DNA of 49,827 bases, from NCBI GenBank assembly GCA_964384105.1, contig CAYLJV010000008.1, positions 1 through 49,827 of the forward strand, given 5' to 3'. The notes below the pieces were generated by a model that was given only the letters and a program-made list of their open reading frames with translations, was not told the DNA's origin and ran no database searches. The translations under genes were made by a program, and so were the position numbers. This document shows positions 220 to 42,764 of this stretch, piece by piece. This stretch comes from Candidatus Hadarchaeota archaeon. Its GTDB lineage: Archaea > Hadarchaeota > Hadarchaeia > Hadarchaeales > JAGGTB01. Positions within the stretch are counted from its first letter, which is position 1; every line of letters begins with the position of its first letter.

Positions 220-483
220 ATGCGTAGGGGTAGACTGGAGATCTTAGGCGACATCCTCTCCGCCACGAAAAAACCCTCCACAAAGACAAGGATTGTCTAT
301 CATGCTAACCTAAGTTTCTCTCAAGCGGAAAGATATCTCAAACTTTTAATCAAGGAGGATCTCATCGAATGCGACGAAGAGGGTAAGAACGATAAATATG
401 AAATAACGGAAAAAGGCAGAAAATTCCTCAATGGTTTCCAAGAATTAGAGAACCTAATGGATGATGGAAAGTTTTCAAAGTAA
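220..483 (+). CDS. winged helix-turn-helix transcriptional regulator (ArnR1/HTH_45-like)
   Basis: RRGRLEILGDIL...KTRIVYHANLS...YLKLL...YEITEKG pattern typical of small archaeal wHTH regulators. Confidence 0.85.
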   Translation: MRRGRLEILGDILSATKKPSTKTRIVYHANLSFSQAERYLKLLIKEDLIECDEEGKNDKYEITEKGRKFLNGFQELENLMDDGKFSK

Positions 484-533
484 ACTTCATTCCAATTTTA
501 GAAACTGAATCAATCAAATTTTGAACTTGAAGA

Positions 534-728
534 TTATTTCGCTTTCTTTGCTTCTAACTTCATCAGTTCTCTAGCGAAATCTGTAGGTTGGAAGAAACAC
601 TCGAGTAGACCCATCTTCTCAAGCTGTTTTAAAACCTTTTCAGACTCCCTTAAGTTTAAATTAAGACCACTAGATATTTCTTTGGCATTAATTGGTTTCA
701 ACGTAGACTGAGTTAAAATTTGGCTCAT
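534..728 (-). CDS. small wHTH-like protein; start revised from 851 to ATG 728
   Basis: INAKEISSGLNL..EKVLKQLEKMGLL HTH-like motif; a minus-strand operator and TATA at 843-805 lie inside the longer ORF, favouring the later start; resembles 8405..8626. Confidence 0.55.
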   Translation of the reverse strand: MSQILTQSTLKPINAKEISSGLNLNLRESEKVLKQLEKMGLLECFFQPTDFARELMKLEAKKAK

Positions 729-804
729 TAATTTTGATATTTCCAAATATAAATCTCCCTTAAATTCATTTTTTCTAATCCCCTTACTAAAATTGAGATT
801 TAAG

Positions 805-843
805 CTTTTAAAGCAATGAGAAATTAGATTCTGAACATAATTC
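805..843 (-). promoter_or_regulatory. operator plus TATA for the divergent wHTH gene
   Basis: 821-843 AAAT TAG ATTC T GAAC ATA ATTC, then on the minus strand an 8-bp spacer and TTTAAAAG. Confidence 0.6.
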
Positions 844-878
844 TTATCCATTAACAGGAATTAAATTTATTCTACCCC

Positions 879-919
879 GAATAACATTCTGAATGTAGTT
901 TAGTATTTCTTTTTATTAA
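879..919 (+). promoter_or_regulatory. operator plus TATA of the TasA-like operon
   Basis: 879-901 GAAT AAC ATTC T GAAT GTA GTTT, 8-bp spacer, TTTTTATTAA. Confidence 0.7.
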
Positions 920-1027
920 AAAGAGACAGTGTTATTTTTGGCTGGGCCAATGATTGTAAATTTCCTTAGATATAACTATTTCGAAGTGAATCTGATTTCC
1001 AGTCTCATATCACGCTCACAAAATGAG

Positions 1028-1075
1028 GCCGCCGAGGGGGGGCGGCATATAAATTCCCGAAAATAAGGGGAGGTG
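1028..1075 (+). promoter_or_regulatory. conserved 5'-leader hairpins, copy 1
   Basis: GCCGCC-GAGGGGG-GGCGGC, then a TCCC/GGGA stem overlapping the RBS GGAGGTG. Confidence 0.6.
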
Positions 1076-1084
1076 AAAAACGAA

Positions 1085-1798
1085 ATGATTAATTCAAAAA
1101 TCTTGGGAAGCATGATGGTCATGGGAATCGCAATAGTTCTAGCAGGTGCTGGAACTATGGCATATTTCAGCGATACTGAAACGAGCAGTGGTAACAACTT
1201 CACAGCTGGACAACTCGATCTTATGATCGACTTCGATGGTTACTACAATATGTATCCACTCGATGGAGAACCAAACGCCGGTTCATGGATGTATAAGGAC
1301 TTAGTAGAAGGTGATAAATTCTTTGACTTCGACGACATCAAGCCAGGTGACTGGGGAGAAGGAACAATCAGTATTCACGTCTACGATAATCCAGCCCTTT
1401 TATGGATTACAGCCGACAATATAATGGATAACGAAAATGGTATGAACGAGCCAGAAAATGAAGTTGATGACACACCTGAAGAAGGTGAGTTGTCTCAAAA
1501 TATACTGTTCACCATATGGGTGGACTGTGACGGAAGTAATACTTTAGACGAAGGAGAAGTTGTTCTTTGTGAAGGTGAACCACTAGCTACAGCTGAGGTA
1601 GGTCCAGTTTACATAGAAAACTGCACTGATTACTACTTAGGAGTAATGTGGGAAGTTCCATGGGACACGGGAAACATAATACAGAGTGATAGCGTGACGT
1701 TTGACATTACATTCTATGCCGAACAGGCAAGACACAACCCAGACATGGAAATTGCCGAAAATGTACCTTGCAACGGAGAACCAGTTATCGACTTATAA
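1085..1798 (+). CDS. TasA/CalY-like fibre subunit with SipW-cognate signal peptide (probable major pilin)
   Basis: GAGTMA|YFSDTETSSGNNFTAGQLDL signal/donor strand; DIKPGDWGE and GNIIQSDS TasA-family motifs; RBS favours ATG 1085. Confidence 0.85.
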   Translation: MINSKILGSMMVMGIAIVLAGAGTMAYFSDTETSSGNNFTAGQLDLMIDFDGYYNMYPLDGEPNAGSWMYKDLVEGDKFFDFDDIKPGDWGEGTISIHVYDNPALLWITADNIMDNENGMNEPENEVDDTPEEGELSQNILFTIWVDCDGSNTLDEGEVVLCEGEPLATAEVGPVYIENCTDYYLGVMWEVPWDTGNIIQSDSVTFDITFYAEQARHNPDMEIAENVPCNGEPVIDL

Positions 1799-1822
1799 AC
1801 GACGTTAATCAATCGGTAGAAA

Positions 1823-3343
1823 ATGAGAAGAGCACTTTTTTCAATAATGCTGATAGGTATCGTGGCGGTGGGAGCCACCGTTGGTGGACTTGCTGCCTTC
1901 CACGATACTGAATCCAGCAAAGGAAACACATTCCAAGCAGGTGACTTAGATCTAAAGATAGACTGGGAAACCTCTTACAACGGAAGCGAACCAGTAATAA
2001 CATCGTGGAACGACCTAGATGCAAGCGGAGATGGACCAATATTCAACTTCACCGACGTTAAACCGGGTGACTGGGGAGAAACAACCATAAGCGTACACGT
2101 CTTCACTAACGACGCGTGGGTTTGTGGAGAAATCGTCCCATACTCATACGATGACGTAAGCAGTAACGAACCCGAACTTCTAGTGGACGACAACAACATA
2201 GAAAATGATCAATGGGACGGTGAACTCGCTCAGAATTTGGATATAACGATCTGGCTAGAGAACGATGGAAACAACGAATATAACGACGATACGGACAGAC
2301 AACTGTTCTCAGGTAAATTTAGCGAACTCGACATTCCATTCTACTTCAACATGGATCAAAACCTCAACCCGGACGATGGCATACAGCCACTAATCGGGTG
2401 TGAGAACTATTATGTTGGCGTAAGCTGGAGTATCGATTCATCAGTTGGTAACGAGATTCAATCGGACGAGATAATGTTCGATATAATCTTTGACGCATAC
2501 CAGTACAGGCACCAAGAAGACAACAATCCATGTGTTCCTTGTGTAGACATAGAGGAGCTTTACTTGAGTGATTCTGGATACCCCAACAATGATGGTGGGG
2601 GAACCGAACTTTACTCAGTAACACTCGATGATACTGATAACAAGGCTTACTTAACATGGCTTGGACATCTGCCCGCAACGAACTTTGATGTAGTGGCAGC
2701 CTTAGCTTGTTCGAAAGACTTTGAGGAGCTTTACGCGATAGACATGGTCTCGAAGCACTTGGGAATCTTCAATCTCGGCACGAGTACTTTCGCCGACATG
2801 GGTGTAATCTCAGGTCTTCCAGATGGTGTGGTACTGGCATCATTCTCGCCATTCGATGACAATCTATACATAGCAAGCATGAGTACTGACGAGTTGTTTA
2901 CTCTAAATGTTGATAGTTTAGCTTTGAACAACCTAGGCACTATTACAAAGGAAGGCACGGCTGAGTCCCTCAACATCTGGGGGGCAGACATAGTCTTCGG
3001 TGCTGACGGAACACTCTACATTTGGATAAACGAAGCACCAACTACACCATCAGAACTAGGAGTATGGGCTGTAGACATTTCAACAATGACTGCCGAGCAC
3101 AGGGGAACACCCGAGAATGCTTTAGAGTTCAGTGGACTAGCAATCAGAGCCGGTGGTACTGGTGACTTAGTCGGTTCTGTAAAAGGCTGGTATCTAGATG
3201 ATCCAGTGCCGGAGAGATCCGCCATCTGGACTGTGGATCCAACTGACTCCACAATAGGAAAGAAGTACCCAACCTACCTCGACAATGACGAACGCCACAC
3301 ACTAGGAAACGGAGACATGGCAGTTGGTACCATATGCCGATAA
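1823..3343 (+). CDS. TasA-like subunit with C-terminal beta-propeller-like domain
   Basis: GGLA|AFHDTESSKGNTFQAGDLDL, DVKPGDWGE, GNEIQSD; C-terminal repeats (ALACSKD..LYAI, SFSPFDDNLYIA, DIVFGADGTLYI) resemble propeller blades. Confidence 0.8.
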   Translation: MRRALFSIMLIGIVAVGATVGGLAAFHDTESSKGNTFQAGDLDLKIDWETSYNGSEPVITSWNDLDASGDGPIFNFTDVKPGDWGETTISVHVFTNDAWVCGEIVPYSYDDVSSNEPELLVDDNNIENDQWDGELAQNLDITIWLENDGNNEYNDDTDRQLFSGKFSELDIPFYFNMDQNLNPDDGIQPLIGCENYYVGVSWSIDSSVGNEIQSDEIMFDIIFDAYQYRHQEDNNPCVPCVDIEELYLSDSGYPNNDGGGTELYSVTLDDTDNKAYLTWLGHLPATNFDVVAALACSKDFEELYAIDMVSKHLGIFNLGTSTFADMGVISGLPDGVVLASFSPFDDNLYIASMSTDELFTLNVDSLALNNLGTITKEGTAESLNIWGADIVFGADGTLYIWINEAPTTPSELGVWAVDISTMTAEHRGTPENALEFSGLAIRAGGTGDLVGSVKGWYLDDPVPERSAIWTVDPTDSTIGKKYPTYLDNDERHTLGNGDMAVGTICR

Positions 3344-3373
3344 GCGAATAAAGTAAAACACCAAAACAACATT

Positions 3374-3395
3374 CCTTTCTTTATTTTTTATTTTT
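3374..3395 (+). terminator. oligo-T terminator
   Basis: T-rich run directly after the 1823..3343 stop. Confidence 0.5.
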
Positions 3396-3435
3396 AATCG
3401 CCCGGTCAGGGCAAATCAGAAGTCGCGATCAAAGA

Positions 3436-3479
3436 GCCGCTGAAGAGGGGCGGGATAAAAATACTTCAAAAAAAGGAGT
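3436..3479 (+). promoter_or_regulatory. conserved 5'-leader hairpins, copy 2
   Basis: CCGCT-GAAGAGG-GGCGG, then an ACTTC/GGAGT stem over the RBS. Confidence 0.55.
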
Positions 3480-3489
3480 TGAAAAAAAG

Positions 3490-4035
3490 ATGAGAACAAA
3501 AGCAATAGTCGGCTTGATGATCCTGGGAGTAACCATATTCCTAGTCAGTACAAGCAGCATGGCTTACTTCCACGATACCGAAATCGGAAAAAACAATTTC
3601 TTCGGGGTTGGAACCTGGGGTGGTACCGAAACCGCATGGGCAGGATCTGATAATACACCCGAAGTAAACCCAGACGGATGGACATGGTTCGGCACAGGAT
3701 GGGGTGGGTACTTCCCTTACAATCCAGAAGATGGGATTACACTAGTTCCCTTAATCGCTGCCAGAAACATACCCGTTGGGGAATTACTCATAGACTTCGA
3801 TGATACAGATAATACCCTATTAGTTGAATTCTTTGTCGAGGAAAATTTCTACCTAACAGAAACACACCTTCATGTAGGAACAACAATCCCCGGCTCCGCA
3901 CCTGGATTATACCCCCTAGGAGACGATGAACTACCTGAGGGAACCTGGCATAAATCCTATGAAATAGACTTAGGATCCAATCCAGAAAACCAATACATAG
4001 CCGCACATGCAGTCGTTTATTCCGACAACTGGTAA
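3490..4035 (+). CDS. SipW-cognate signal peptide protein with non-TasA beta domain (possible tip subunit)
   Basis: SSMA|YFHDTEIGKNNFFGVGTW; lacks the xKPGD and GNxIQ core motifs. Confidence 0.75.
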   Translation: MRTKAIVGLMILGVTIFLVSTSSMAYFHDTEIGKNNFFGVGTWGGTETAWAGSDNTPEVNPDGWTWFGTGWGGYFPYNPEDGITLVPLIAARNIPVGELLIDFDDTDNTLLVEFFVEENFYLTETHLHVGTTIPGSAPGLYPLGDDELPEGTWHKSYEIDLGSNPENQYIAAHAVVYSDNW

Positions 4036-4207
4036 ATCCGATAATATTTCAAACGGATAGACCAGTTGTCAAGGAATAAAAAGAGTTAGATATGCTCTAG
4101 CAGGCACAGGGAGAGATTTTTAACTCTCCTACTAATATTAACTATTTCAATTTTAGAGAACATAGGAACATTGATTTACAATTACTGAATAAGAATCAAG
4201 CGAAAAA

Positions 4208-4651
4208 ATGAACGCTAAAGACAAGCTCATCTATGGATCTATCATTGCCCTTTTTTGCACCCTACTTATCCTATACATTGCCCCGATTCACTTCATAGTG
4301 GTAAGAGGACACAGCATGGAACCTACTATAGATGATGGTGAAATCGTTGTCTTATTACCAGTGGATAAAAACGATATCCAAACTGGAGATATAATCGCCT
4401 TTAGACATGGAGAAAAGCAAATCATTCACAGAGTCGTAAATTTCGAGAACGGGATGATAATAACGAAAGGAGATAATCTACCAGCCACAGATCCCTATCT
4501 CATTTCTAAATCCGATGTAGTAGGAAGATATGCCACAGAAATACCCTATCTGGGATTAGTGGTTCAATACGGAAGATCCCCCCTTATCTACATATTCCTG
4601 ATTTTAGTTCCGGCCGCTTTGCTAATTTACAGCGAAATCAGAAGGATTTGA
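4208..4651 (+). CDS. sipW: signal peptidase I, SipW/ER type
   Basis: GHSMEP, GDIIAF, IIHRV, TKGDN Ser-His-Asp motifs; N- and C-terminal TM helices. Confidence 0.9.
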   Translation: MNAKDKLIYGSIIALFCTLLILYIAPIHFIVVRGHSMEPTIDDGEIVVLLPVDKNDIQTGDIIAFRHGEKQIIHRVVNFENGMIITKGDNLPATDPYLISKSDVVGRYATEIPYLGLVVQYGRSPLIYIFLILVPAALLIYSEIRRI

Positions 4652-4668
4652 ATAAAGAAAATGAAACA

Positions 4669-4708
4669 GAAAAATATTCTGAGTTCAATTACTCCCTCAC
4701 TTATATTC
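4669..4708 (+). promoter_or_regulatory. degenerate operator plus TATA upstream of the second sipW
   Basis: 4669-4691 GAAA AAT ATTC T GAGT TCA ATTA, 8-bp spacer, CTTATATT. Confidence 0.45.
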
Positions 4709-4810
4709 AGAACTTATTAAACATACAAAAGGGAATCTAGGTGGAAAATATAATCTATTCAATCAGGTTTTTGAATCTCACACCGCGGATAAAGAGGACG
4801 GATCCTTCAA

Positions 4811-5761
4811 ATGAATAAGAAAGATGCCTTAGTTGCCGGAGTCGTTATAGTAATAATTGCCGGACTTGGGCCACCATTGATCTCAGGATCTCTACAGCCT
4901 TTGATAGTACTAAGTGGAAGCATGCAGCCGATAATGAATCCTGGAGATACGGTAATCATTAGAGAAACATCTCCTACAGAGATTAAAAGAGGAGATATAA
5001 TTGCATTTGACGACCCATCCGGAAGGTCAAATGTCTTGATAACCCATAGGGTAATCAACGTAAATAGCAATGAAGATAACCTATCTTTTAAAACAAAAGG
5101 CGATGCTTCAGAAGACCCGGACCCATTCGTTGTCAGTAGAGAAGATGTGGTCGGAAGAGCTGTATTTTCTATTCCCTATTTAGGCTACCTCTTCCACTAC
5201 GGGAGTCACCCCATCGTTCTAGTCTTGCTTATACTAATTCCTTCAATTCTGATAATCCTCAGCGAAATTCGAAAAATCAGCGAATACACGGACCCGATTA
5301 AGATACGAAAGAAGGAAAGAGAGGATAGAAAAAGTGGGAGTAGAACAAAGAGGATAAAAATAAATTATAAAAAATCAAGATTGTTAGGAATTCTGATCAT
5401 AAGCTTCCTGATATTCGGAATACTCTCCATCCCAACCTTGCAAAAGAGCGGAGAAAACACTACAGCTAGATTTTCTGGGGGGGATCTTTCTACCACCCTA
5501 GTTTATATGGAAGAAGAAAATCAGATACCACAATACAATATAATATCAAAAGGGGAGAATATTAGCCTGGAAAACAACCAGATGCACATGGTATCCGCCG
5601 CACCTCACATAATTCCCACATTCATGGTTGCCATTCTAGCGGAAGCAAATCCAAAATTACCGTCATTATTCACCCTCCTAGTACCACCCATATTCCTGAC
5701 ATTTCTACTATATCCCGTGTGGAGAAGACCTTCTAAAAGAGGAAAATCCAAAAGAAGATAA
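4811..5761 (+). CDS. sipW: signal peptidase I, SipW type, with C-terminal membrane extension
   Basis: SGSMQP, GDIIAF, ITHRV, TKGDA; extra domain of about 150 aa with TM segments. Confidence 0.88.
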   Translation: MNKKDALVAGVVIVIIAGLGPPLISGSLQPLIVLSGSMQPIMNPGDTVIIRETSPTEIKRGDIIAFDDPSGRSNVLITHRVINVNSNEDNLSFKTKGDASEDPDPFVVSREDVVGRAVFSIPYLGYLFHYGSHPIVLVLLILIPSILIILSEIRKISEYTDPIKIRKKEREDRKSGSRTKRIKINYKKSRLLGILIISFLIFGILSIPTLQKSGENTTARFSGGDLSTTLVYMEEENQIPQYNIISKGENISLENNQMHMVSAAPHIIPTFMVAILAEANPKLPSLFTLLVPPIFLTFLLYPVWRRPSKRGKSKRR

Positions 5762-5778
5762 AAATGGTTAATGAACCC

Positions 5779-5817
5779 GAATATTTTTCTGAACTACGTT
5801 TCCTGATACTTTTAAAC
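5779..5817 (+). promoter_or_regulatory. operator plus TATA
   Basis: 5779-5801 GAAT ATT TTTC T GAAC TAC GTTT, 8-bp spacer, TTTTAAA. Confidence 0.7.
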
Positions 5818-5876
5818 CTATTAAGCATTAAAATACATAGAAAGTTAGGAAAAATCTTCTCAGGATTTATGATATA

Positions 5877-6896
5877 ATGAATTACCAAGTAGCTTCTGCG
5901 ATTTCAAAGTACTACATCGTTTTTGCCGTAATATTAATTGCATTAGCTGGTATAGGAGGCTTCTGGCTTTATCAGAACTCCCAAACGGAGCTAGCAACCA
6001 GAAACGTGAAGCAAACAGCTTATATTTACGAAGGAGGGTTTCAGCATAGCGCAGAGGTTACCGAACCGAACGAGCTATGGCAAGTCGGTGCTATTCTAAA
6101 CAACCGACCAGCTTATTTCCTTTCGATCACTCCCGAGCTTGAAACAAACTTTAGGTTCAATCTTTACCAAGCCTCTGCTGTACAAGCAGATGCGAGAGTA
6201 GATACTGAGCTAGTAATATCTACAGTTCGCGATCAGATGGAATACTGGAAGGAAACCCGATATCTGGAAGGAGACGTTTTTTCTCTTCAAGAAAGATCTT
6301 CTACATTAAACATAACTCTCAATCTCCCTCAGATAAAAGAGAGAATTGAGAATATACAGGAAAACATCGGATATCGAGGTGGATCCACGAACGTTAAACT
6401 CATATCTACCGTCGAAATAGATGGTAGAATAGAGGGGAATGACGTCGAAATTAGCGAAACTTATGAAATGCCCCTCAATCTAGGTGAAACTATAGTTACC
6501 TTGTCGCCTAATATTTCACGTACACAAGAGGTCACTGAAACGATAACGAGAGAAGTTGAAGTTAAACCCACTCTATTCGAGAGATTATATCCCTCAATAC
6601 TCTTGGCAGCCAGTTTGATTGCGCTAGGCTTCGTTACACTAGAAAAAAGAAGAATCAATGAATCCGAACTAACACTGCTCAAAAAACAGCAGGAATTAAA
6701 CGAGTTCAAAGAGTGGATCTCCCGGGGTAAACTACCCGAAATAGACTCAAAAACCACCGTAAAAATGAACTCGCTGGAAGATCTCGTAGACACATCAGTA
6801 GACATGAACAGAAGAGTTATCTACGACGAAGAAAGGAACATTCACTTCTTCATACATGAAAACTACCTTTACACTTATGAACCGGAGGAGTACTAA
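5877..6896 (+). CDS. DUF5305-like membrane protein
   Basis: two TM helices; HSAEVTEPNELW, NRPAYF, EWISRG and SLEDLVDTSVDMNRRVIYD motifs; family typically found beside archaeal sipW. Confidence 0.7.
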   Translation: MNYQVASAISKYYIVFAVILIALAGIGGFWLYQNSQTELATRNVKQTAYIYEGGFQHSAEVTEPNELWQVGAILNNRPAYFLSITPELETNFRFNLYQASAVQADARVDTELVISTVRDQMEYWKETRYLEGDVFSLQERSSTLNITLNLPQIKERIENIQENIGYRGGSTNVKLISTVEIDGRIEGNDVEISETYEMPLNLGETIVTLSPNISRTQEVTETITREVEVKPTLFERLYPSILLAASLIALGFVTLEKRRINESELTLLKKQQELNEFKEWISRGKLPEIDSKTTVKMNSLEDLVDTSVDMNRRVIYDEERNIHFFIHENYLYTYEPEEY

Positions 6897-6903
6897 AGGG
6901 TAA

Positions 6904-6941
6904 GAATAAACTTCTGAACTACATTCCTTATCCTTTTAAGA
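6904..6941 (+). promoter_or_regulatory. operator plus TATA
   Basis: 6904-6926 GAAT AAA CTTC T GAAC TAC ATTC, 7-bp spacer, TTTTAAG. Confidence 0.7.
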
Positions 6942-7047
6942 ACCATGTTTTGGAATATAAAACTGGAAATCCTGGAAAATGGAAGTTAAAGCATAATATG
7001 ATATTATTTTAACTTTAAACGAGATAAAACAGAAAGGATAACAAAAA

Positions 7048-8370
7048 ATGATGAAAAACGTACCGCTTGCTCTTTTAATAATCGGTTTGGCGGCCGCCGG
7101 ACTAGGTACGGGTACCTACGCCATCACAAATGGCGATAACGGAGAAGATCTCCTACTGGAACTCGATTCGACAGATGAAAACTTCACTGTAACAACACAG
7201 GAAATAAATTGGACGGGAAGCTCTGTAATAAACCTAGAAGATATGAAACCCGGCGACACGGGAGATTTCGATGGAACCATTCAAAATAGCGGAGCAAACA
7301 GCGGAAACGTGTACTTTATTTTGAATATAACGAGCAATCTCGAGGGCAGTTGCCCCGAACCCGAGATGGTTGCTGAAGATGGCGATTGCGGGGAAAACGG
7401 GGAACTACCTTCAAATCTCAAAGTAAAGATCAGTTACGACAAAAACGGTGACGGAAATCTCGAAACCGTTCAAGATTGGACACATCTGTCTGATATTGAC
7501 AATACCCAGCTCTACTTCGGAACTATTTCCCCGGAGACCACAAGAAGCTGGGAATTAAGCTACAAGATCGAGCCCTGGGTTGGTAATATAATACAAGGAG
7601 ACATCTGTGAGTTCTCCATGACCGTTGGATTCTCGGAAACCGAACCAACAAGCCCCACCGGAACCACAACTACTACCAATAGGCCACCCTACGCAGACGC
7701 TAACGGCCCTTACGCCGTGAACGAGGGTGAGACTATTCTACTGGATGGATTCGGAAGCTGGGACCCCAATGGGGACATCCTAACCTACAACTGGTCTATT
7801 ACCGGGGATCCAACGGGTGCAGCGAGCTTGACTAACACTAGTTCAGAAACTCCAACATTCCACGCACCAACAGTTGACACCGACACGAACGTCACAGTCG
7901 AGTTAACCGTGAATGACGGCCATGGACACAGCGACACTGACACTGCTACAGTCACCGTGAGGGACATCGCCTCACCATCATCGGCCGAGTTCAGTATCGA
8001 AGACTTCACCATAACTCCAAACCCCGCCAACGTCGACGAAACAATCACAGTCTCCTTCAGAATCACAAACACGAGTGGTGTAACCGGTGATTTCACTGCG
8101 GGACTCTCGATAAACGGAGAACCTGTAGACAGCAAAACGGAGAGTTTCGATCCGGGGGACAGCAGGATGATGTCCTTCGAGGTAACAATAAGCGAACCCG
8201 GAACCTACGAGATTGACGTCAACGGAACCAAGGGAACTCTGGAAGTTACCGCACCGCCAACGCCCTTCCCAACACTCTCGGTGCTGGCAATAGTACTGAT
8301 AATCCTCTTATTAATCCTGATAGGAGCGTACTACAGAAAAAAGAGGCGAGAAGCGGCAAGTTCCTCGTAG
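7048..8370 (+). CDS. membrane-anchored TasA-like protein (TasA domain, Thr linker, PKD-like, CARDB-like, C-terminal TM plus basic tail)
   Basis: GTGTYA signal; DMKPGD, GNIIQGD; NRPPYADANGPY..SWDPNGDILTYNW PKD motif; TM followed by YYRKKRR. Confidence 0.8.
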   Translation: MMKNVPLALLIIGLAAAGLGTGTYAITNGDNGEDLLLELDSTDENFTVTTQEINWTGSSVINLEDMKPGDTGDFDGTIQNSGANSGNVYFILNITSNLEGSCPEPEMVAEDGDCGENGELPSNLKVKISYDKNGDGNLETVQDWTHLSDIDNTQLYFGTISPETTRSWELSYKIEPWVGNIIQGDICEFSMTVGFSETEPTSPTGTTTTTNRPPYADANGPYAVNEGETILLDGFGSWDPNGDILTYNWSITGDPTGAASLTNTSSETPTFHAPTVDTDTNVTVELTVNDGHGHSDTDTATVTVRDIASPSSAEFSIEDFTITPNPANVDETITVSFRITNTSGVTGDFTAGLSINGEPVDSKTESFDPGDSRMMSFEVTISEPGTYEIDVNGTKGTLEVTAPPTPFPTLSVLAIVLIILLLILIGAYYRKKRREAASSS

Positions 8371-8404
8371 GTAAAAAACAGAGAATACAGGAGGTCATTC
8401 AGCG

Positions 8405-8626
8405 ATGACCAAAAATGGAAGAAAGTGTAAATTGCTAAAATCAGTAGAAAAAATAATTTCGCACACAGCAAATGCGAGGTCGATAGACACCCATGAAATC
8501 CGCGATCTAACCGACCTAGAAATAAGTAGCATAAAGAAAATTATCCCAATACTCATTGGAATGGGACTACTACAGGATTCATTAACACCAACTGAGCTGG
8601 GTCTATTTATCATAGGACAAGTCTAA
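8405..8626 (+). CDS. small wHTH-like protein
   Basis: GGAGG RBS; IDTHEI..LIGMGLL..PT parallels the 534..728 product. Confidence 0.5.
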   Translation: MTKNGRKCKLLKSVEKIISHTANARSIDTHEIRDLTDLEISSIKKIIPILIGMGLLQDSLTPTELGLFIIGQV

Positions 8627-8637: not shown

Positions 8638-9714
8638 TCATCCACTCATTGTGTTTAAGTAGTCCCTGATCTTCCCCATGCTTTCATTCCAACTTGGGAG
8701 CTCCTCAAATCTTTCTCGTGCATTCTCGCTCATATCCCCCAGCTTTTCGGGGTTTTCCTTAATCCACTCTAGACACTCGATAAGAGAATCAATGTCCCCC
8801 GGTCCGATTAGAAAGCCCTGCTTCCCATCGGTTATGAATTCACTCGCTCCACCTTTTTTCGAAGCAATAACCGGCAGCCCATGCCCCAACGCCTCCACAT
8901 AGACTATTCCAAATCCTTCGTAGAAGGAAGGAACTGCCAGAAGGTCGCTACTTCCATACAGATTCGAAAGTCGTTCCTCTGAGACAAAGCCGAGGAGTTT
9001 CACTCTTGAATCCAAAGACTCCTCTCTGATCATTCTCCTTATATGTCGGGAGTAACCTTCATCGGTGCCCATTTTTCCCACTATTTTCAACGAGAAACCC
9101 TCAACCCGAGAAAGCGCCTTAATCAATACGTCGAGGCCCTTATGAGGATGCATATTTCCGACAAAAAGTATCGTAAGATCCTCCTTATCTCCTGGTGAAG
9201 CCACTTTCTTTGGTGAGATATGGTCCTTGCCTGGATAAGCCACGACGCCATCTGCTTCATTCACGAGTGAAATCACGTCATCTCTCGTTGCTCGGCTATT
9301 GAAAACGAATCCATCGAGGGTCCTGAGGTATCTTTCCTCGAAGTACTTGTACATCTCACTCCTTTCTATTTCTCTGGTTGCTAAAAACGACAGGTGATGA
9401 ACTATGGATACAAGAGGATATTCGACCTCGCCTTTTAGTTTCTGATTCAAGTAGAATAGAGAAGAATGGTTTAGTTCATCTTGTAAAAGTACATCTACAT
9501 CTAATCCCCGAAGTCTCTCGTAGAGATTCTCATCAAAATTGTTGGATACATTTCCCAGATAATCTTTCCTTGGTATCGAAACGACTTCGACTTCGTCTCC
9601 CTTTTCCTCAAGATAACTGATCAGCATCCTATCGTAAAGATAGCCGCCTGTAATCTGCCTCAAGTCACCATAAATCAGAAGACCTACTCTCATTCGAACA
9701 CCCAAGATTCTCAA
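8638..9714 (-). CDS. glycosyltransferase family 4
   Basis: TGGYLYDR, FVGN..PHKG, EGFGIVYVEAL (EX7E). Confidence 0.9.
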   Translation of the reverse strand: MRILGVRMRVGLLIYGDLRQITGGYLYDRMLISYLEEKGDEVEVVSIPRKDYLGNVSNNFDENLYERLRGLDVDVLLQDELNHSSLFYLNQKLKGEVEYPLVSIVHHLSFLATREIERSEMYKYFEERYLRTLDGFVFNSRATRDDVISLVNEADGVVAYPGKDHISPKKVASPGDKEDLTILFVGNMHPHKGLDVLIKALSRVEGFSLKIVGKMGTDEGYSRHIRRMIREESLDSRVKLLGFVSEERLSNLYGSSDLLAVPSFYEGFGIVYVEALGHGLPVIASKKGGASEFITDGKQGFLIGPGDIDSLIECLEWIKENPEKLGDMSENARERFEELPSWNESMGKIRDYLNTMSG

Positions 9715-9762: not shown

Positions 9763-10650
9763 TTAACACCTTTTTACTCCCGCTATATCTATCTGATGTG
9801 CTATGAAGATTAATTCTCCATTAGCTATCTCCCTCTGACGCTCCGAAAGCCATTTTTCGAGAATATTATCAAGCTCTCTTCCCGAAATGGATTGATTTAT
9901 CATTTCTAATATACATCGAAGGAAGTATTTTTCTTCAGGAACATATTTCCCATATCTTGGAAAAACTATCCAATCAGAACTACCTACATCAATTATTTTC
10001 ACATTACTCTCGAATGAGAGTTCGAGAAGTTTACGACCTGTCTGGCTATCTCCCGGACCAGAACTCATCTCTTCATGATATGTTCTAATTATTTCTTCGT
10101 CACCCTCGATTTTTGGTCTGAATATAGTAACACCATCAAAATTAAGAGTTAAGTAAAAAAATCCATCTTCGGCAAGCAAAGAAAGAAGCGGATCTAAGGT
10201 CTCTTCCAAATCTACAAGGTCCATAAAAGAATTTGCTATCAGAAGATTCCACTTACCCTTCTCAGATTTTGTAAAATCGAAAATATCTGCATTTTTCAGT
10301 CTAAGTCTAATTTCAATATCCTCGTCTTCCAAAAAAATGTTCGTAGAATCGAGATAGTTTTGCTCAATACCCCTCTCCTCACACCACCTCCTAAGATAAT
10401 TTTTCGCTTTCGAAATCAAATCACTATCATTTTCTACGAGGGTATATTCCCCTCTCTTCAGTACTCCCCAATCTAGAAGTCTAACAACCATCGTACCTAT
10501 TCCACCACCAGCCTCAATTATTCTAAGATCCGAACTGGGTAAATGACTTTTTAAGGAGTCAAAAACTCTTCTATTCAAAGATCTATCATCGACAATCTTC
10601 TTAGCCTTGAGATAATGAGCAAAGTCAAAGTCTTTCACAAAAATCGCCAA
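9763..10650 (-). CDS. class I SAM-dependent methyltransferase-like protein
   Basis: YLKAKKIVDDRSLN, IIEAGGGIG SAM motif, SSDW. Confidence 0.75.
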   Translation of the reverse strand: MAIFVKDFDFAHYLKAKKIVDDRSLNRRVFDSLKSHLPSSDLRIIEAGGGIGTMVVRLLDWGVLKRGEYTLVENDSDLISKAKNYLRRWCEERGIEQNYLDSTNIFLEDEDIEIRLRLKNADIFDFTKSEKGKWNLLIANSFMDLVDLEETLDPLLSLLAEDGFFYLTLNFDGVTIFRPKIEGDEEIIRTYHEEMSSGPGDSQTGRKLLELSFESNVKIIDVGSSDWIVFPRYGKYVPEEKYFLRCILEMINQSISGRELDNILEKWLSERQREIANGELIFIAHQIDIAGVKRC

Positions 10651-14542: not shown

Positions 14543-14902
14543 TTGTATATTTTGGAACTAATAATCCCTCCATCTCAAGTGAAACGCTATAGGAAAAAGA
14601 AAGGCCTAAGCATCGAAGAATTAGCCAGAGAAATAGGCTGGACACCAGCTTATATAGAAAATCTAGAATCCGGTAATGTCAATCCACCATTTTCTCGTTT
14701 AATGAAAATAACTAAAGCCTTGAGAGAAGATCTTCCCTATAAATGGAAATTTGAAGAAAATCTCGAATTCGTAAGAAAAGTATATTACAAATGGACGTGC
14801 CCTCAATGTGGAAATCAAGTAGAGGGGGAAACAGAAGAAGATGCAAAGGATAGAGCAAAAAAACACGTTTTCTTACAACATGAAGGGGATTTAAACCTCT
14901 AA
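14543..14902 (+). CDS. XRE-family HTH protein with C-terminal C2H2-like finger
   Basis: RKKKGLSIEELA..IENLESG; CPQC...HVFLQH. Confidence 0.8.
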   Translation: MYILELIIPPSQVKRYRKKKGLSIEELAREIGWTPAYIENLESGNVNPPFSRLMKITKALREDLPYKWKFEENLEFVRKVYYKWTCPQCGNQVEGETEEDAKDRAKKHVFLQHEGDLNL

Positions 14903-15086: not shown

Positions 15087-15680
15087 TCAATAAAACTTCT
15101 CTTCGATTATATTATTAGAAGTATCCAGATACAACCACCAAGAAAGAGCAAAAGTAACCGCTATTGTAGTAGCGCCACCTACAAACCACATCCTCCCAAA
15201 TAAGGCAAAGAAATTATTCGAAAAATGAAGAAGTACCGCAAGAAAATAAAAAGCAGCAGATTTCTTCTTAGCTATCCCGTATGCAGCGATTGATGTTAAC
15301 GCAGCGTGAAAGAATATCCCTGGCAACCTTATCATAACTGGAGCCCCATAGGAAAAAACATAGATAAAGAACTCAACGATTCCAAATCCCAATCCAATAA
15401 GAAAACCAAAAATAAATATAGACCGCTCGGTCTCGCCGTGTCGGTAGAAAAGAGGGTAAGCTTTTGCGAACTCTTCTATTAAAGGAGCTGATATCGCTAT
15501 AGAGAAAAAAGCCGCATAGAACGCGGGTAGTGATGATGATAAAATATTAGAAAATCTTTCAGCAAATATCGTAAGTGGAACACTCAAAACTATTCCGGAA
15601 ATAAAGAAAAAGAACTTTTCTTTCAAATCTGGTTCGTGAACTTTGATAGTTATTCTTTTCCTTACCAAAAATCTACCCAT
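15087..15680 (-). CDS. PrsW family intramembrane metalloprotease
   Basis: APLIEEFAK, GLGFGIVE, FFH and LLHFSNN motifs. Confidence 0.85.
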   Translation of the reverse strand: MGRFLVRKRITIKVHEPDLKEKFFFFISGIVLSVPLTIFAERFSNILSSSLPAFYAAFFSIAISAPLIEEFAKAYPLFYRHGETERSIFIFGFLIGLGFGIVEFFIYVFSYGAPVMIRLPGIFFHAALTSIAAYGIAKKKSAAFYFLAVLLHFSNNFFALFGRMWFVGGATTIAVTFALSWWLYLDTSNNIIEEKFY

Positions 15681-16435: not shown

Positions 16436-18040
16436 TTGAATTCAAAATTTCTAGGAAGTTTACTAGTTATAGGTATCGCAATTATGGCCGCGGGAGCAGG
16501 CACTATTGCCTACTTCCACGACACAGAAACAAGTAAAGGAAATACATTCACAGCTGGTGAGCTAGACCTTCACATAGATTGGACAGAATACTACAACGGC
16601 GAGTTAATAGAGGAAAGAGCGCTCGGGGACCTAGATGGAGAACCGATCTTCATGCTGGAGGACATTAAACCAGGAGATAATGGTGAAGCTACGATAAGCA
16701 TTCACGTTGCCAATAATCCGGCATTGCTCTGGATAACTTTAGAAAATATAGTTGACAACGAGAACGGAATGAACGAACCCGAGATGGAAGTAGACGATGA
16801 CAATACTGGTGATTTATCAGAACATATGATGTTCACGATCTGGATCGATGATGGAAACAATATCTTGGACCCGGGAGAAACCATCATATGTGAAGACACG
16901 CTAGCCGACGTCGGTACCATTGGCCCAGCATACATAGAAAACTGCTGTGTATACTATCTAGGAGTACACTGGTGGGTTCCTTGGGATACAGGAAACGTAA
17001 TACAGAGTGACAGTCTCTCCGCAGACATATCGTTCTATGCAGAACAAGCACGTCACAATCCAGCAATGGAAGACGCATATTTCCCACCATGCCCAAGTGA
17101 CAATATGCCAGTAGAATGCCCCGACTGCCCATACGGCGACAACTATCTAGAGTCTGATAACATTAGCGTCCTTAGCATGGAAACTTCCGGTTTTCCAAGT
17201 ATCTCGGCCTTCGTTAGAGTAAACACATCGGCTGGAATAGCAGGCGACCTTGTTGACGACTTCGAATTATGTGAACAAGGTAAACAACCACTCGATCTCA
17301 ACGTCTCTTTCACATCAGGGACCTCTGCCGATATCGTGTTCGTCTTTGATGACACCGGCAGCATGTACGAAGAAATCGATGGAATGAAAACTGCAATCTC
17401 CAGCTTCGTTGACAAAATAGACAACGCGGGAATAGATGCTAGGTACGCACTGATCTCATTCAAAGATACAGTAACTCTAAGACAAGATTTCACAGATAAC
17501 GAGGAAGTAATCCAATCAGCAATAGGCACTTTATCCGCATCCGGCGGCGGTGACTATCGTGAAGACGATTTCGATGCAATAGCAGCAGCTACAAGAGATA
17601 AAGCACCAGACGTCGGTGGGTCATTATCGGCTTACCGAGCAGCTGCACAGCGCGTGATAATCGACATTACCGATGCTCCAGCACAAGTCAGCAACTCTAT
17701 CTCGAGCTATACGATGGGTGATATCGAAAATATGCTTGAGGGATACACTTACATCGCCATATCTCCAGAACTATCCGCTACCTATGCAGACGGCGACAAG
17801 AAGGTCCTAGCTAGCAATATTGGGGCCACATGGTTTGAACTACCAACTACCAGTTCTAGCGAATTCGTTGACACTTTAGTCGATGAAGTAGGAGGCTTGT
17901 TAACAACTACCTACACTCTAACCTACACTACATGCTATCCAGCAGAAGATGGAACCTTGAGGAATATCCTCATAGTTGTCGATGATCCGGACGAAGGGAT
18001 GCTCTACAAAACGGCAAGTTACACAGCTCCCGCTCCTTAA
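16436..18040 (+). CDS. TasA-like subunit with C-terminal von Willebrand A domain
   Basis: GAGTIA|YFHDTETSKGNTFTAGELDL; core closely matches 1085..1798; ADIVFVFDDTGSM MIDAS and DITDA. Confidence 0.88.
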   Translation: MNSKFLGSLLVIGIAIMAAGAGTIAYFHDTETSKGNTFTAGELDLHIDWTEYYNGELIEERALGDLDGEPIFMLEDIKPGDNGEATISIHVANNPALLWITLENIVDNENGMNEPEMEVDDDNTGDLSEHMMFTIWIDDGNNILDPGETIICEDTLADVGTIGPAYIENCCVYYLGVHWWVPWDTGNVIQSDSLSADISFYAEQARHNPAMEDAYFPPCPSDNMPVECPDCPYGDNYLESDNISVLSMETSGFPSISAFVRVNTSAGIAGDLVDDFELCEQGKQPLDLNVSFTSGTSADIVFVFDDTGSMYEEIDGMKTAISSFVDKIDNAGIDARYALISFKDTVTLRQDFTDNEEVIQSAIGTLSASGGGDYREDDFDAIAAATRDKAPDVGGSLSAYRAAAQRVIIDITDAPAQVSNSISSYTMGDIENMLEGYTYIAISPELSATYADGDKKVLASNIGATWFELPTTSSSEFVDTLVDEVGGLLTTTYTLTYTTCYPAEDGTLRNILIVVDDPDEGMLYKTASYTAPAP

Positions 18041-18589: not shown

Positions 18590-19109
18590 TTGAGAAATAA
18601 CCGAGTCAAAAAACTCGGATTGGGACTCTTGGTTATAGTAGTTATCTTAGCGACAGTTGGGGGATACCTTCTCCTCTCCGGAGGGACTGCAGGAAACAGT
18701 AGGGAAAACGGCGAAATCATTACCAGCATAGATTTTCGACTCCAAGGTTTCGAGGCAGGCAACCTAGGTGGGGATATACGCTATCGGGGCAAGGGAATCA
18801 ACACCGACTCACCAAAATTAAGAATTGACACAATAGGAGCTGAAGATGTCCTCATTTTTAACTACGACGAAAACATCGAATACACATACACGGGAAGCTC
18901 TTGGATCAAATTTCTATCGCTCAAACTGGCCCATACACGGGACTTGGGGAATGGATCACAGAAATATCTCAAGAAGGGGAGGAACTTACGAAGAAACCTA
19001 CAGCGAATGGACCGTAAAAGTTACGATAAACGGAGTGAATCCCAATTTGCAAGATGATTTGTTCTCACCACACGAGAATGCTACTGTAGAAGAATTTGAT
19101 ACAACATAG
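18590..19109 (+). pseudogene. frameshifted membrane-anchored secreted protein (LolA/DUF4412-like fold suspected)
   Basis: N-terminal TM ORF 18590 continues in the +1 frame near 18911; C-terminal VNPNLQDDLFSP motif. Confidence 0.55.
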
Positions 19110-42098: not shown

Positions 42099-42752
42099 TC
42101 ATTTCACCTCTATCTCCAATCCGACTCTCCCTTCCATAGACCGTTCTGGATATTTAGCAAAAATTTCCTTCTTATGAGAAGTACAATGAGTAGGAACTAT
42201 TATCGAAAGACTTTCTAGAACCTCGTAATCCTTAAAGTCGTGGAATCCGCCCACCAAACCATATAGCTCCCCCAACTCCGAAGCCTTCTCAAGAATTTTT
42301 CTCACACCAGGATGAGAACAGCCAACGATTACAACTAATCCCTCACGAGTTTCGACAATGAGTGACTGTTCTTTTGGCTTTTTTCCTAGCTCCCCCGTAG
42401 ACCAGGCATTATTCGAGATCTTCTGAGAACTCTCTACTTCATGTAGTTTGAAACGATTGGACAGTTCACCCTTCATATTTTTGGAGAGTGACTTTGGGAC
42501 GTATAGATCAGCGTTATTATTTTTGATACAGGAAATCCCGCCGACATGATCCCAATCAGAATGGGATAGGAATATCTTATCAATTTCTTTGATATTGCAA
42601 CCTATTTTTCTCAAATTGGAAAGCAACAGAAGACCATCCCATCCTGTATCAAAAAGTATCTTTTCTCTATCCAGTTCCACGAGCGCTGCGAAACCCCAAC
42701 CTTTCTTGTAAGGCGGCTCAGCAACATTATCATAAACTATCTTTACTTTCAT
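42099..42752 (-). CDS. MBL-fold metallo-hydrolase
   Basis: LFDTG, SHSDWDHVGG, GCSHPG, GGFH, HCT. Confidence 0.9.
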   Translation of the reverse strand: MKVKIVYDNVAEPPYKKGWGFAALVELDREKILFDTGWDGLLLLSNLRKIGCNIKEIDKIFLSHSDWDHVGGISCIKNNNADLYVPKSLSKNMKGELSNRFKLHEVESSQKISNNAWSTGELGKKPKEQSLIVETREGLVVIVGCSHPGVRKILEKASELGELYGLVGGFHDFKDYEVLESLSIIVPTHCTSHKKEIFAKYPERSMEGRVGLEIEVK

Positions 42753-42764
42753 AGTTTCACCTCA

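Follow-up and report, generated by a model that had tools for sequence, protein, structure and literature searches.

A TasA-superfamily surface fibre locus with candidate tip, shaft and anchor subunits predicted in a Hadarchaeota genome

A gene cluster in Candidatus Hadarchaeota archaeon (contig CAYLJV010000008.1; the window is the whole stretch of 49,827 nucleotides analysed) very probably encodes a surface fibre of the TasA superfamily. We moderately favor the full model, in which the locus supplies the fibre together with its tip, shaft, anchor, peptidases and regulator, and lean a little less firmly toward the specific roles of tip for 3490 and anchor for 7048 (genes and their proteins are named by start position). 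Every testable point agrees with a division into tip, shaft and anchor and, because this reading mirrors the TapA/TasA, Tafi and AbpX models, the locus is no new kind of system; its layout was published between 2022 and 2026 for related archaeal and bacterial fibres. Judged from its genes, the locus appears distinct by its mix, with PF12389-type subunits found together with DUF5305 and a TM-anchored subunit that has no donor strand. The TFB of the host, an uncultured archaeon, is most similar to MSBL1/Hadarchaeota proteins. All genes of the original prediction are present at the coordinates given below, on the + strand with the exception of 534–851 (− strand).

A search of the 245 six-frame ORFs of the window (≥40 aa) with A2, a profile of the 1085 family (59 sequences), matched exactly 1085, 1823, 3490, 7048 and 16436, even at E≤10, and F[SH]DTE occurs near the N-terminus in exactly four of the 245 ORFs. 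This exclusive pattern is not chance. Alignments to A2 divide the five proteins into those with strand and core (1085, 1823 and 16436), strand only (3490), and core only plus a TM segment (7048). Fifteen of the 29 columns that are invariant or nearly so in the A2 alignment fall within residues 24–46, the strand region. As predicted, all the features of a full TasA-like subunit, signal, donor motif and core, are present in 1085, 1823 and 16436. SipW-type signals had been claimed more widely; with the TIGR04088 cutoff at 19 bits, 1085 (37.9 bits), 1823 (26.7 bits) and 16436 (35.2 bits) score above it, 3490 (14.6 bits) scores below it and 7048 has no match. The subunits are acidic (D+E 16–22%).

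In the mechanism we propose, a Sec-exported filament would be built by donor-strand complementation. Each subunit precursor would be anchored in the membrane by its SipW-type signal peptide, and the SEC11-type peptidases 4208 and 4811, aided by the DUF5305 protein 5877, would cleave after a small-x-A site and so release an N-terminal strand in which position 2 of the mature protein is aromatic and position 4 is Asp (Y/A-F-x-D-T-E). The 3490 protein, a strand on a closed, foreign beta-sandwich, would give the first strand to 1085 and end at the distal tip, like TapA or TafC. The 1085 subunits would chain by passing the strand of each to the next, while 1823 and 16436, having strand and core, could be inserted anywhere and would display propeller-like and vWA domains. 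Growth would end when 7048, an acceptor core with no strand, accepts the last strand, and its PKD/CARDB-like stalk and C-terminal TM helix would tether the fibre to the membrane as in TafF. The HTH_45 protein 220 would control the locus.

The candidate major (shaft) subunit is encoded at 1073..1798 (+), where GTG 1073 opens the ORF and ATG 1085 is the likely start (237 aa). Cleavage of its signal peptide is predicted, by likeness to TasA, after ..GTMA, which would make YFSDTETSSGNNF the mature N-terminus; the core is a TasA-like beta-sandwich. PF12389 matches 1085 with 31.0 bits over only the N-terminal 40 profile positions and 16436 with 36.0 bits over profile positions 16–174; in 7048 its score stays under the cutoff, and a Pfam search of 1823 did not return it at E≤0.01. 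Most of the 124 homologues of 1085 were already annotated with PF12389. An AF2 model of 1085 (pLDDT 80.7), in which residues 26–39 are unstructured, has as its best Foldseek matches in the PDB donor-strand filaments, namely 7ueg AbpA (E 9.5e-4), the 8aur TasA fibre (1.1e-3), the 7pnb thread, the 9h8b cannulae and FimG/FimA, with the first two at the top. The similarity is weak (TM 0.32–0.39, E about 1e-3), and the family profile matched none of the TasA or AbpA chains among PDB sequences at E≤1. The evidence for a TasA fold in 1085 is thus modest.

The Pfam name of the family, 'Camelysin metallo-endopeptidase', would suit secreted camelysin-like (Peptidase_M73) proteases in place of filament subunits, and monomeric adhesins typically carry vWA, PKD and propeller-like domains. 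We regard either reading as very improbable: the structurally characterised Foldseek matches are filaments, the five paralogues differ precisely in strand and core content, and a dedicated peptidase, a DUF5305 protein and a regulator are the composition of filament loci.

The strand-only protein, 3490 (3490..4035, +, 181 aa), joins a signal peptide and YFHDTEIGKNNFF to about 115 aa of unrelated beta-sandwich. A2 aligns to residues 1–42 only (hhalign prob 92), and the AF2 model (pLDDT 79) had no Foldseek match in the PDB at E≤1e-3 and none to TasA- or AbpA-like structures, in keeping with the prediction of a donor strand on a protein that lacks the TasA core. The C-domain is a module that has no Pfam entry and occurs in 70 other representative proteins, two of them TasA-like subunits. 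The F-x-D-T-E segment lies inside the TIGR04088 signal model; its conservation could therefore reflect peptidase recognition and not strand donation. By that account 3490, whose YFHDTE motif falls within the same model and whose C-domain is found in many unrelated surface proteins (SdrD_B, He_PIG, Fib_succ_major) outside a TasA context, would be merely another secreted substrate of the dedicated peptidases, for instance a carbohydrate- or surface-binding protein. We consider this unlikely, since the family-profile match runs 16 residues beyond the predicted cleavage site, through N-N-F-F-G-V-G, strand-only proteins recur at related loci (see below), and TapA, whose N-terminus nucleates TasA, is exactly such a protein in the parts of PMC9674648 and PMC10151520 drawn on here. 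The same parts identify TasA residues 28–38, equivalent to the strand region here, as the donor strand, and report AFHDI in TapA for AFNDI in TasA and that TapA, a complete Ig fold, can only start a filament. The original prediction called 3490 a terminal cap; the protein reads better as a candidate TapA/TafC-like initiator that ends at the distal tip.

The donor-less subunit, 7048 (7048..8370, +, 440 aa), comprises a TasA-like core (residues 1–195), PKD, a CARDB-like domain, PTPFPT, a C-terminal TM segment and a basic tail. A2 aligns to residues 1–195 (hhalign prob 99, E 4.6e-18); the donor motif, segment FSDTETS, is deleted, and a C-terminal hydrophobic segment lies at residue 405, which bears out the predicted TasA core with a TM segment and no FxDxE strand. 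The predicted stalk is supported in its PKD part (Pfam E 2.5e-12), and for CARDB only the Hadarchaeota orthologue gives a Pfam match. A chain terminator would be expected to keep the core and specifically lose the strand segment, as seen here, and 7048 is a candidate terminator and membrane anchor similar to TafF.

We compared the locus with 76 related loci. All 76 have at least one strand-plus-core gene, 65 have at least two, and a signal peptidase adjoins in 71. Strand-only proteins occur in 33, a count to which at least one fragment at a contig end (L061) and three fusions with a peptidase (L029, L046 and L070) contribute. Cores without the motif are present in 8 (strict) to 17 (loose) of the loci and all three classes occur together in five, while DUF5305 was found in none of the 76. 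A TM-anchored donor-less subunit is present in one locus, L001, from a Hadarchaeota MAG, with the gene order HTH_45, a 241-aa subunit, a 472-aa propeller-type subunit, a 377-aa subunit and a 547-aa donor-less core protein. This last protein (P0192), the orthologue of 7048, combines the donor-less core with two PKD domains, CARDB and PTPFPT-TM. L001 is the closest syntenic locus, and a signal peptidase, DUF5305 and a 3490-like gene were not found in the 20.7 kb of it that the analysis covered. Synteny in related MAGs thus agrees with the prediction, in that a donor-less PKD/CARDB/TM subunit follows the subunit genes in L001 and donor-only and donor-less paralogues recur in relatives.

These comparisons also bear on whether the fibre is anchored at all. 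It might be released into a biofilm matrix as in Bacillus TasA, with 7048 either a platform or chaperone for assembly, tethered to the membrane and holding the proximal donor strand transiently, or an independent Ig-rich surface protein that shares the TasA-like domain by chance. PMC9245690 describes fibres of the TasA family as scaffolds of the matrix and presumes archaeal PF12389 proteins to be biofilm factors. The restriction of the C-terminal-TM donor-less subunit to L001 implies that most relatives do without such an anchor, and the 7048 N-domain has diverged so far that a word-indexed search across 5.8 billion proteins returned nothing but 7048 itself. We hold a released fibre to be rather unlikely, given that 7048 retains the family core and specifically lacks the strand segment, that L001 has the same architecture at the same operon position, and that the published Tafi model assigns the anchor role to the analogous TafF.

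Two full subunits carry additional C-terminal domains. The 1823 protein (1823..3343, +) has a signal, an AFHDTE strand and a core in residues 1–233, which A2 aligns throughout (hhalign prob 100, E 8e-52), followed by a 270-aa C-terminal domain; the 472-aa orthologue in L001 aligns over residues 1–450. The propeller predicted for this domain received an Atlas lead (DUF4394/NHL, score 0.90) and no match in Pfam, and the domain is possibly beta-propeller-like, making 1823 a candidate decorated or adhesive subunit. The fifth subunit, 16436 (16436..18040, +, 534 aa), sits 8 kb off amid unrelated genes. It carries a signal and a YFHDTE strand, its core shares 66% identity with that of 1085, and it also has a vWA domain and a C-terminal tail. 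Its predicted vWA domain is confirmed by Pfam (VWA_4, E 4.7e-13), and 16436 is a candidate adhesive subunit.

Three genes for processing follow 3490. The first, 4208 (4208..4651, +), encodes a short archaeal/ER-type signal peptidase I of 147 aa with two hydrophobic segments (TIGR02228, archaeal-type signal peptidase I, 97.8 bits; cutoff 51.85), and the second, 4811 (4811..5761, +), a long signal peptidase I of 316 aa (115 bits) with a SEC11-like catalytic domain, which matches PDB SEC11C 7p2q (E 6.9e-12), and a C-terminal extension of ~150 aa bearing further hydrophobic segments. The two are 38% identical and share S-M-x-P, H-R-V and K-G-D motifs. They had been predicted to be SipW peptidases; they are signal peptidases, and both fall below the cutoff of the Bacillus SipW equivalog (67.5 for 4208 against 190). 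Hydrophobic segments of 4811 lie at residues 6, 134 and 191, an architecture that appears TafD-like by comparison with the description of TafD in PMC11821415. The third, 5877 (5877..6896, +, 339 aa), is a membrane protein with hydrophobic segments at residues 12 and 237, and its predicted DUF5305 assignment is borne out (PF17231, E 1.6e-42). By analogy with TafG (PMC11821415, PMC12337348, 10.64898/2026.01.04.697558), it is a candidate accessory subunit of the signal peptidase.

Like the locus, Bacillus subtilis tapA-sipW-tasA (PDB 8aur, 5of1/5of2) has subunits of the PF12389 and TIGR04088 type, an operon with an ER-type signal peptidase dedicated to it, and a second protein, TapA in Bacillus and 3490 here, in which the same strand is joined to another, complete beta-sandwich. 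The locus differs in its archaeal host, its two peptidases and DUF5305 protein, its three strand-plus-core paralogues, two of them with adhesin-like C-domains, and its donor-less, TM-anchored paralogue, which Bacillus does not have. The 3490 domain showed no similarity to TapA, with no TapA chain among the Foldseek matches listed, and in sequence the core is too far from TasA itself for HMMER to match the two. Tafi (Tat-fimbriae; Haloarcula hispanica, Natrinema; tafA-G) and the Sec-type taf-like clusters known from Thermococcales and Archaeoglobales (PMC11821415, PMC12337348) agree with the locus in both their components and their proposed logic. There, TafC is the tip that donates the first strand to major and minor pilins, TafF, with a pilin-like N-domain and a C-terminal TM segment, accepts the last strand as the anchor, and the signal peptidase TafD, which has extra TM segments and a C-domain, is accompanied by the DUF5305 partner TafG and the small regulator TafB (PMC11821415, PMC12337348). 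Unlike Tafi, the locus has PF12389/TIGR04088 subunits, with none of the TafA/TafE or DUF1102 type by Pfam at E≤0.01, export signals that look Sec-type and not Tat, two peptidases, a PKD/CARDB-like anchor stalk and a minimal single-domain tip.

The AbpX loci of Pyrodictium abyssi (10.64898/2026.01.04.697558) likewise join TasA-superfamily subunits to signal peptidase I, DUF5305, minor subunits, a predicted tip and transcription factors, and their subunits are acidic with a donor strand that is aromatic at position 2 and acidic at position 4. The AbpX-linked peptidase is described with ten TM helices, as compared to 2 and about 3–4 hydrophobic segments in the peptidases here. According to this preprint, archaeal TasA-like proteins cluster apart from AbpX and none is experimentally characterised. 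The Pyrobaculum ABP system (AbpA/AbpB, PDB 7ueg), source of the best Foldseek match of 1085, resembles the locus: its filament is of the donor-strand type, its second protein is similar to TapA, and its operon includes a wHTH gene. Its operon differs in being described, in the part of the account drawn on here, without a dedicated signal peptidase or DUF5305, and AbpA is related to PF12389 at the profile or structure level only.

Of three predicted wHTH genes, one is well supported. The 73-aa ORF at 8405..8626 (+) has no Pfam or NCBIfam match even at E≤10 and no BLASTP similarity to the 220 protein. The small divergent ORF at 534..851 (−, 105 aa) has a weak Rrf2 match (E 0.007, below cutoff) and BLASTP similarity to the 220 protein (2e-5 over 46 residues), and is a possible second wHTH protein. 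The 87-aa protein 220 (220..483, +) is an HTH_45/Sso10a-type winged-helix protein (HTH_45 E 2.8e-23; NCBIfam Sso10a_fam 86.4 bits) and likely the regulator of the locus; in four of the seven related loci that are archaeal (L001, L004, L008 and L064), an HTH_45 gene immediately precedes the first subunit gene.

The cluster opens with an HTH_45 regulator at 220-483 (+; Pfam E 2.8e-23) and encodes four secreted proteins, referred to by gene start, at 1073/1085-1798, 1823-3343, 3490-4035 and 7048-8370, two signal peptidases I at 4208-4651 and 4811-5761, and a DUF5305 protein at 5877-6896 (Pfam E 1.6e-42), all on the forward strand. A further secreted protein, the fifth, has a vWA domain and is encoded at 16436-18040. 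All genes that the original prediction listed between 220 and 8626 are present at the locus. Of the three wHTH genes it named, the regulator at 220 is secure, the ORF at 534-851 (-) is a weak wHTH-like match (Rrf2 E 0.007), and the 73-aa ORF at 8405-8626 (+) matches no family. The window derives from an archaeal chromosome, with genes for TFIIB, PcrB/GGGP synthase and lysine biosynthesis and a GC content of 0.34-0.45. The TFB encoded at 19594-20526 (-) has a relative at 81% identity, and its best named relatives (60-67% identical) are proteins of "candidate division MSBL1 archaeon" and Hadarchaeota/Hadesarchaea, which places the host, an uncultured archaeon, close to these lineages.

To define the subunit family we built a 59-sequence alignment of 1085 homologues (A2) from a search that gave 124 matches at E<=1e-3 among 343 candidates, most of the 124 carrying a precomputed PF12389 annotation. 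The A2 HMM matches 5 of the 245 six-frame ORFs of the window (>=40 aa), even at E<=10, and these are exactly the five secreted proteins. Proteins 1085, 1823 and 16436 match A2 end to end. The match of 3490 is restricted to residues 1-42, comprising the signal peptide and YFHDTEIGKNNFFGVG. Residues 1-195 of 7048 match A2 (hhalign prob 99, E 4.6e-18), and in the alignment 7048 lacks the approximately 8 residues that bear the F-S-D-T-E-T-S of the family; a word-indexed protein search with its residues 1-205 returned a self-match only. The division into proteins with donor strand and core, strand only, and core only, from which the subunit roles had been predicted, is a real sequence property. Fifteen of the 29 invariant or nearly invariant A2 columns fall in residues 24-46, and the mature proteins are strongly acidic (D+E 16-22%). 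This conservation and acidity fit a role at the subunit interface, and possibly a calcium-assisted complementation of the kind described for AbpX (10.64898/2026.01.04.697558, preprint text). The precursor of 1823 is the only one that starts with two arginines (MRRALF, 1823-1843), a faint twin-arginine likeness; the other four have single basic residues.

By Pfam score, two of the secreted proteins belong to the TasA family. PF12389 (Peptidase_M73, TasA/camelysin; gathering score 22.5 bits) recognizes 1085 at 31.0 bits, over profile positions 10-48 only, and 16436 at 36.0 bits, over positions 16-174; 7048 falls below the cutoff at 19.8 bits, and neither 1823 nor 3490 has a match at E<=0.01. TIGR04088 (SipW-dependent signal peptides; 19-bit cutoff) recognizes 1085 (37.9 bits), 1823 (26.7) and 16436 (35.2), leaves 3490 below the cutoff (14.6), and gives no match to 7048. 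We count 1823 and 7048 in the TasA family because both match the A2 profile. Pfam found nothing in the C-terminal domains of 1823, 16436, 4811 and 3490.

The AlphaFold2 model of 1085 is a beta-sandwich (pLDDT 80.7, pTM 0.72) in which residues 26-39 are unstructured. With the signal helix included in the query, its best PDB matches by Foldseek are donor-strand filaments: the AbpA bundling pilus (7ueg, E 9.5e-4) and the TasA fibre (8aur, E 1.1e-3), both at probability 1.00 and TM 0.32-0.39, followed by the Sulfolobus thread (7pnb, E 6.5e-3), the TasA monomer (5of1 and 5of2, E 1.5e-2 to 4.5e-2) and cannulae (9h8b, E 5.3e-2), with several Fim subunits also among the matches. These scores are weak, with E<=1e-3 for one match only, and a search of PDB sequences with 1085 alone or with the A2 profile recovered no TasA, AbpA or other relevant chain. 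A TasA-like fold of 1085 is therefore consistent with the model, short of being proven by it. The model of 3490 is a separate beta-sandwich (pLDDT 79) with residues 24-48 disordered; against the PDB it gave no Foldseek match at E<=1e-3 and no TasA-like match. This 115-aa domain, which has no Pfam family, recurs in 70 other representative proteins, among them surface proteins with SdrD_B, He_PIG or Fib_succ_major domains and two TasA-like subunits that contain it internally; an Atlas lookup placed it in unnamed clusters only.

The two peptidases are of the archaeal/ER type, scoring 97.8 (4208) and 115 bits (4811) with TIGR02228 (cutoff 51.85), and the best PDB match of 4811 is SEC11C (E 6.9e-12). 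Identity between the two is 38%, and both have the S-M-x-P, H-R-V and K-G-D motifs. Neither reaches the cutoff of 190 bits for NF046067, the SipW equivalog model from Bacillus (67.5 and 108.2 bits). By these sequence criteria the SipW peptidases of the original prediction are SipW-like in presumed role and are not SipW orthologues. Counting of hydrophobic windows gives two segments in 4208 and three, with a possible fourth near the C-terminus, in 4811, a 316-aa protein with additional hydrophobic segments in a C-terminal extension of about 150 aa. In the DUF5305 protein such segments occur at residues 12 and 237; this protein matched nothing meaningful among PDB sequences, and a locus search with it alone gave 20 pattern matches, none of which was confirmed.

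To place the cluster among its relatives, one genome per GTDB species was scanned with a 16-sequence alignment (A3), and the best 80 of 613 confirmed matches were kept, yielding 76 loci. Sixty-nine of the 76 are labelled bacterial, overwhelmingly Patescibacteria/CPR. The seven labelled archaeal come from a Hadarchaeota MAG (L001, 47% identity), an assembly labelled "archaeon" (L004), Thermoplasmata (L008 and L064), Nanohaloarchaea (L015), Woesearchaeota (L020) and Aenigmatarchaeota (L065). HMM matches were classed by their hmmalign columns. Within this set (best 80 of 613), all 76 loci have at least one gene with strand and core, 65 have at least two, and 71 have an adjacent signal peptidase. 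Proteins with signal and strand and no core occur in 33/76 loci, a count that includes a contig-end fragment (L061) and three peptidase fusions (L029, L046 and L070). Cores without the strand motif occur in 8/76 loci by a strict count and in 17/76 if cores whose match begins just past the strand are included; all three classes occur together in 5/76.

In the three fusion loci, all from Patescibacteria, the genes at L029:4408-6237, L046:13757-14983 and L070:13617-14744 (+) encode a SipW-like peptidase that has S-M-E-P and H-R motifs and two TM segments. It is followed by a third hydrophobic segment, the donor-strand motif of the family (..GGTISYFQDIE..) and a long stretch that is extracellular and in part of low complexity. 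Judged from this layout, the products resemble fusions of a peptidase with a strand-bearing substrate of its own. In other Patescibacteria loci, an FN3-like Pur_ac_phosph_N domain was found in 9 of the 30 scanned membrane proteins adjoining TasA-like genes (L007, L009, L010, L013, L019, L021, L038 and L071). These proteins are 395-469 aa long with hydrophobic segments near both ends, are often encoded just after a large strand-only protein, and form a recurrent unnamed component of those loci.

Gene order supports the predicted arrangement in one relative. In L001 an HTH_45 gene (83 aa) is followed by subunits of 241, 472 and 377 aa and then by a 547-aa protein. The match of the 472-aa subunit to 1823 extends through the C-terminal domain. 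In the 547-aa protein a TasA-like core without the donor strand (hhalign prob 97) is joined by two PKD domains, a CARDB domain and the PTPFPT motif with a TM segment and basic tail that is also seen in 7048, and the protein is 41% identical to 7048 over PKD and 31% over CARDB-TM. Among the 76 loci (best 80 of 613), this anchor type was seen in L001 alone. No peptidase, DUF5305 or 3490-like gene lies within the 20.7 kb covered at L001, and an IS605 OrfB fragment follows the anchor gene. The PTPFPT motif, hydrophobic helix and basic tail that end 7048 (8236-8370) and its L001 orthologue (L001:14980-15108) have a tripartite shape reminiscent of sortase/archaeosortase sorting signals. No known CTERM/LPXTG model matched the 7048 tail at cutoff (LPXTG 13.9 vs 15.9 bits), and the window showed no sortase-like gene.

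In L001, L004, L008 and L064 the first subunit gene is immediately preceded by an HTH_45 gene. The HTH_45 proteins of L004, L008 and L064 carry a fused N-terminal region resembling a response-regulator receiver (L004:4068-4751, L008:34-654 and L064:9153-9833), and L004 has a further receiver-domain ORF past its peptidase gene; these domain matches suggest two-component control of the fibre genes in L004, L008 and L064.

A close described parallel is the Tafi pilus (PMC11821415, PMC12337348). As described there, TafC is the tip protein and activates the pilin by its N-terminal strand; TafF has a pilin-like N-domain and a C-terminal TM segment and accepts the TafA strand; TafD is a signal peptidase that has four TM helices and carries an additional domain; TafG is a DUF5305 protein and TafB a regulator, TafE and TafA also belonging to the system. 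Sec-type taf-like clusters are described there for Thermococcales and Archaeoglobales. By description, the TafD-TafG pair is matched here by 4811, with its 316 aa and at least three hydrophobic segments, and the adjacent DUF5305 gene. The subunits differ: the Tafi pilins TafA/TafE are DUF1102-related and Tat-exported, whereas those of the window are of the PF12389/TIGR04088 type, with no DUF1102 or Taf-type Pfam match in any of them at E<=0.01. AbpX loci, in the preprint text, likewise contain a signal peptidase I, DUF5305, minor subunits, a tip and transcription factors, but their peptidase has ten TM helices as compared to two hydrophobic segments in 4208 and three to four in 4811 (10.64898/2026.01.04.697558). 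The processing module of long peptidase and DUF5305 that the window shares with Tafi and AbpX was found in none of the 76 closest subunit loci (best 80 of 613). Phmmer with the DUF5305 protein over their 5,622 ORFs gave nothing at E<=1e-3, the best match under --max having an E of 0.014, Pfam found the domain in 0/30 TM-filtered neighbouring ORFs and in 0/18 ORFs downstream of archaeal peptidases, and no relative of the 3490 C-domain or the 4811 C-extension was found in these loci.

In mature TasA, residues 28-38 (AFNDI...) are described as the donor strand, by which the following subunit is completed, with F29, I32 and F39 as key contacts (PMC9674648, parts consulted); TapA has the N-terminus AFHDI and a complete Ig fold (PMC9674648, PMC10151520, parts consulted). 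By analogy, predicted cleavage after ..GTMA, ..GLAA, ..SSMA and ..GTIA would expose YFSDTE, FHDTE, YFHDTE and YFHDTE, respectively. Polymerisation by N-terminal donor-strand complementation would accord with the conservation of the strand region and with its disorder in the 1085 monomer model, both of which speak for it indirectly. Protein 3490 would start the fibre in the manner of TapA and finally occupy the distal tip, the shaft would consist of 1085, and 1823 and 16436 would be incorporable subunits displaying adhesin-like domains. Because 7048 has the core and lacks the strand, it would receive the final strand and anchor the fibre to the membrane. We infer that growth is coupled to cleavage at the membrane with DUF5305 as an accessory. 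The domain layouts of 3490 and 7048 fit a tip protein that would donate the first strand and an anchor that would accept the last. Tentatively, and with somewhat less than even confidence, we propose that the TasA-type fibres of MSBL1/Hadarchaeota-related archaea are true cell-anchored pili in which a TasA paralogue that lost its donor strand and acquired an Ig-like stalk and a TM helix forms the terminator and membrane base and a complex of SEC11-type peptidase and DUF5305 couples assembly to cleavage. [quoted passage not shown]

The fibre logic of tip, anchor, peptidase, DUF5305 and regulator is already published. What differs here, as read from the genes, is that subunits of the PF12389/TIGR04088 type are joined to a Tafi/AbpX-type processing module with two peptidases; that the putative anchor, borne on a PKD/CARDB-like stalk, is a TasA paralogue without the donor strand, a type found elsewhere in one Hadarchaeota MAG only (among the best 80 of 613); and that the candidate initiator is minimal, a strand and one small domain. 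PF12389 was earlier mapped to several archaeal orders and Patescibacteria (PMC9245690). Archaeal TasA-like sequences cluster next to bacterial TasA, and the preprint states that experimental characterisation is lacking for all of them (10.64898/2026.01.04.697558); by these two sources, archaeal PF12389 (TasA-proper) proteins are widespread and still uncharacterised by experiment. Among the full-text matches listed for TasA together with Hadarchaeota, Hadesarchaea or MSBL1, none mentioned TasA, and among those listed for TasA in Patescibacteria only the ABP paper (PMC9245690) was relevant; loci of the present kind may already stand in supplementary tables. The locus is a compact and complete candidate that combines a single shaft gene with two subunits bearing adhesin domains, a minimal initiator, an anchor lacking the donor strand, a pair of peptidases, a DUF5305 protein and a regulator. 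Its value is that of a clean test system, and it reveals no new principle: it could be used to study what starts a TasA-type fibre, what ends its growth and what holds it to an archaeal membrane, what DUF5305 does, and whether the donor-only and donor-less paralogues recurring in Patescibacteria and DPANN loci have the same roles.

Immediately past the cluster, the opposite strand carries a GT4 glycosyltransferase gene at 8638-9714 (-; Glycos_transf_1 E 5.7e-39) and an ORF without a family match at 9763-10650 (-). The mature part of 7048 contains 8 N-x-S/T sequons, and the GT4 gene may be linked to glycosylation of the fibre. The distal vWA subunit gene at 16436 is flanked upstream by an XRE-type HTH_3 regulator (14543-14902, +) and a PrsW-family intramembrane protease (15087-15680, -), and on its other side by a 155-aa ORF with no family match (18590-19057, +). 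Elsewhere in the window and unrelated to the fibre cluster are a PGA_cap gene (CapA-like, poly-gamma-glutamate capsule) at 40054-41127 (+) and a run of Nitro_FeMo-Co (NifX/NifB-like), Mrp/ParA-type and 4Fe-4S P-loop ATPase genes at 42099-48695 (-), which is accompanied by radical SAM and DUF364 genes.
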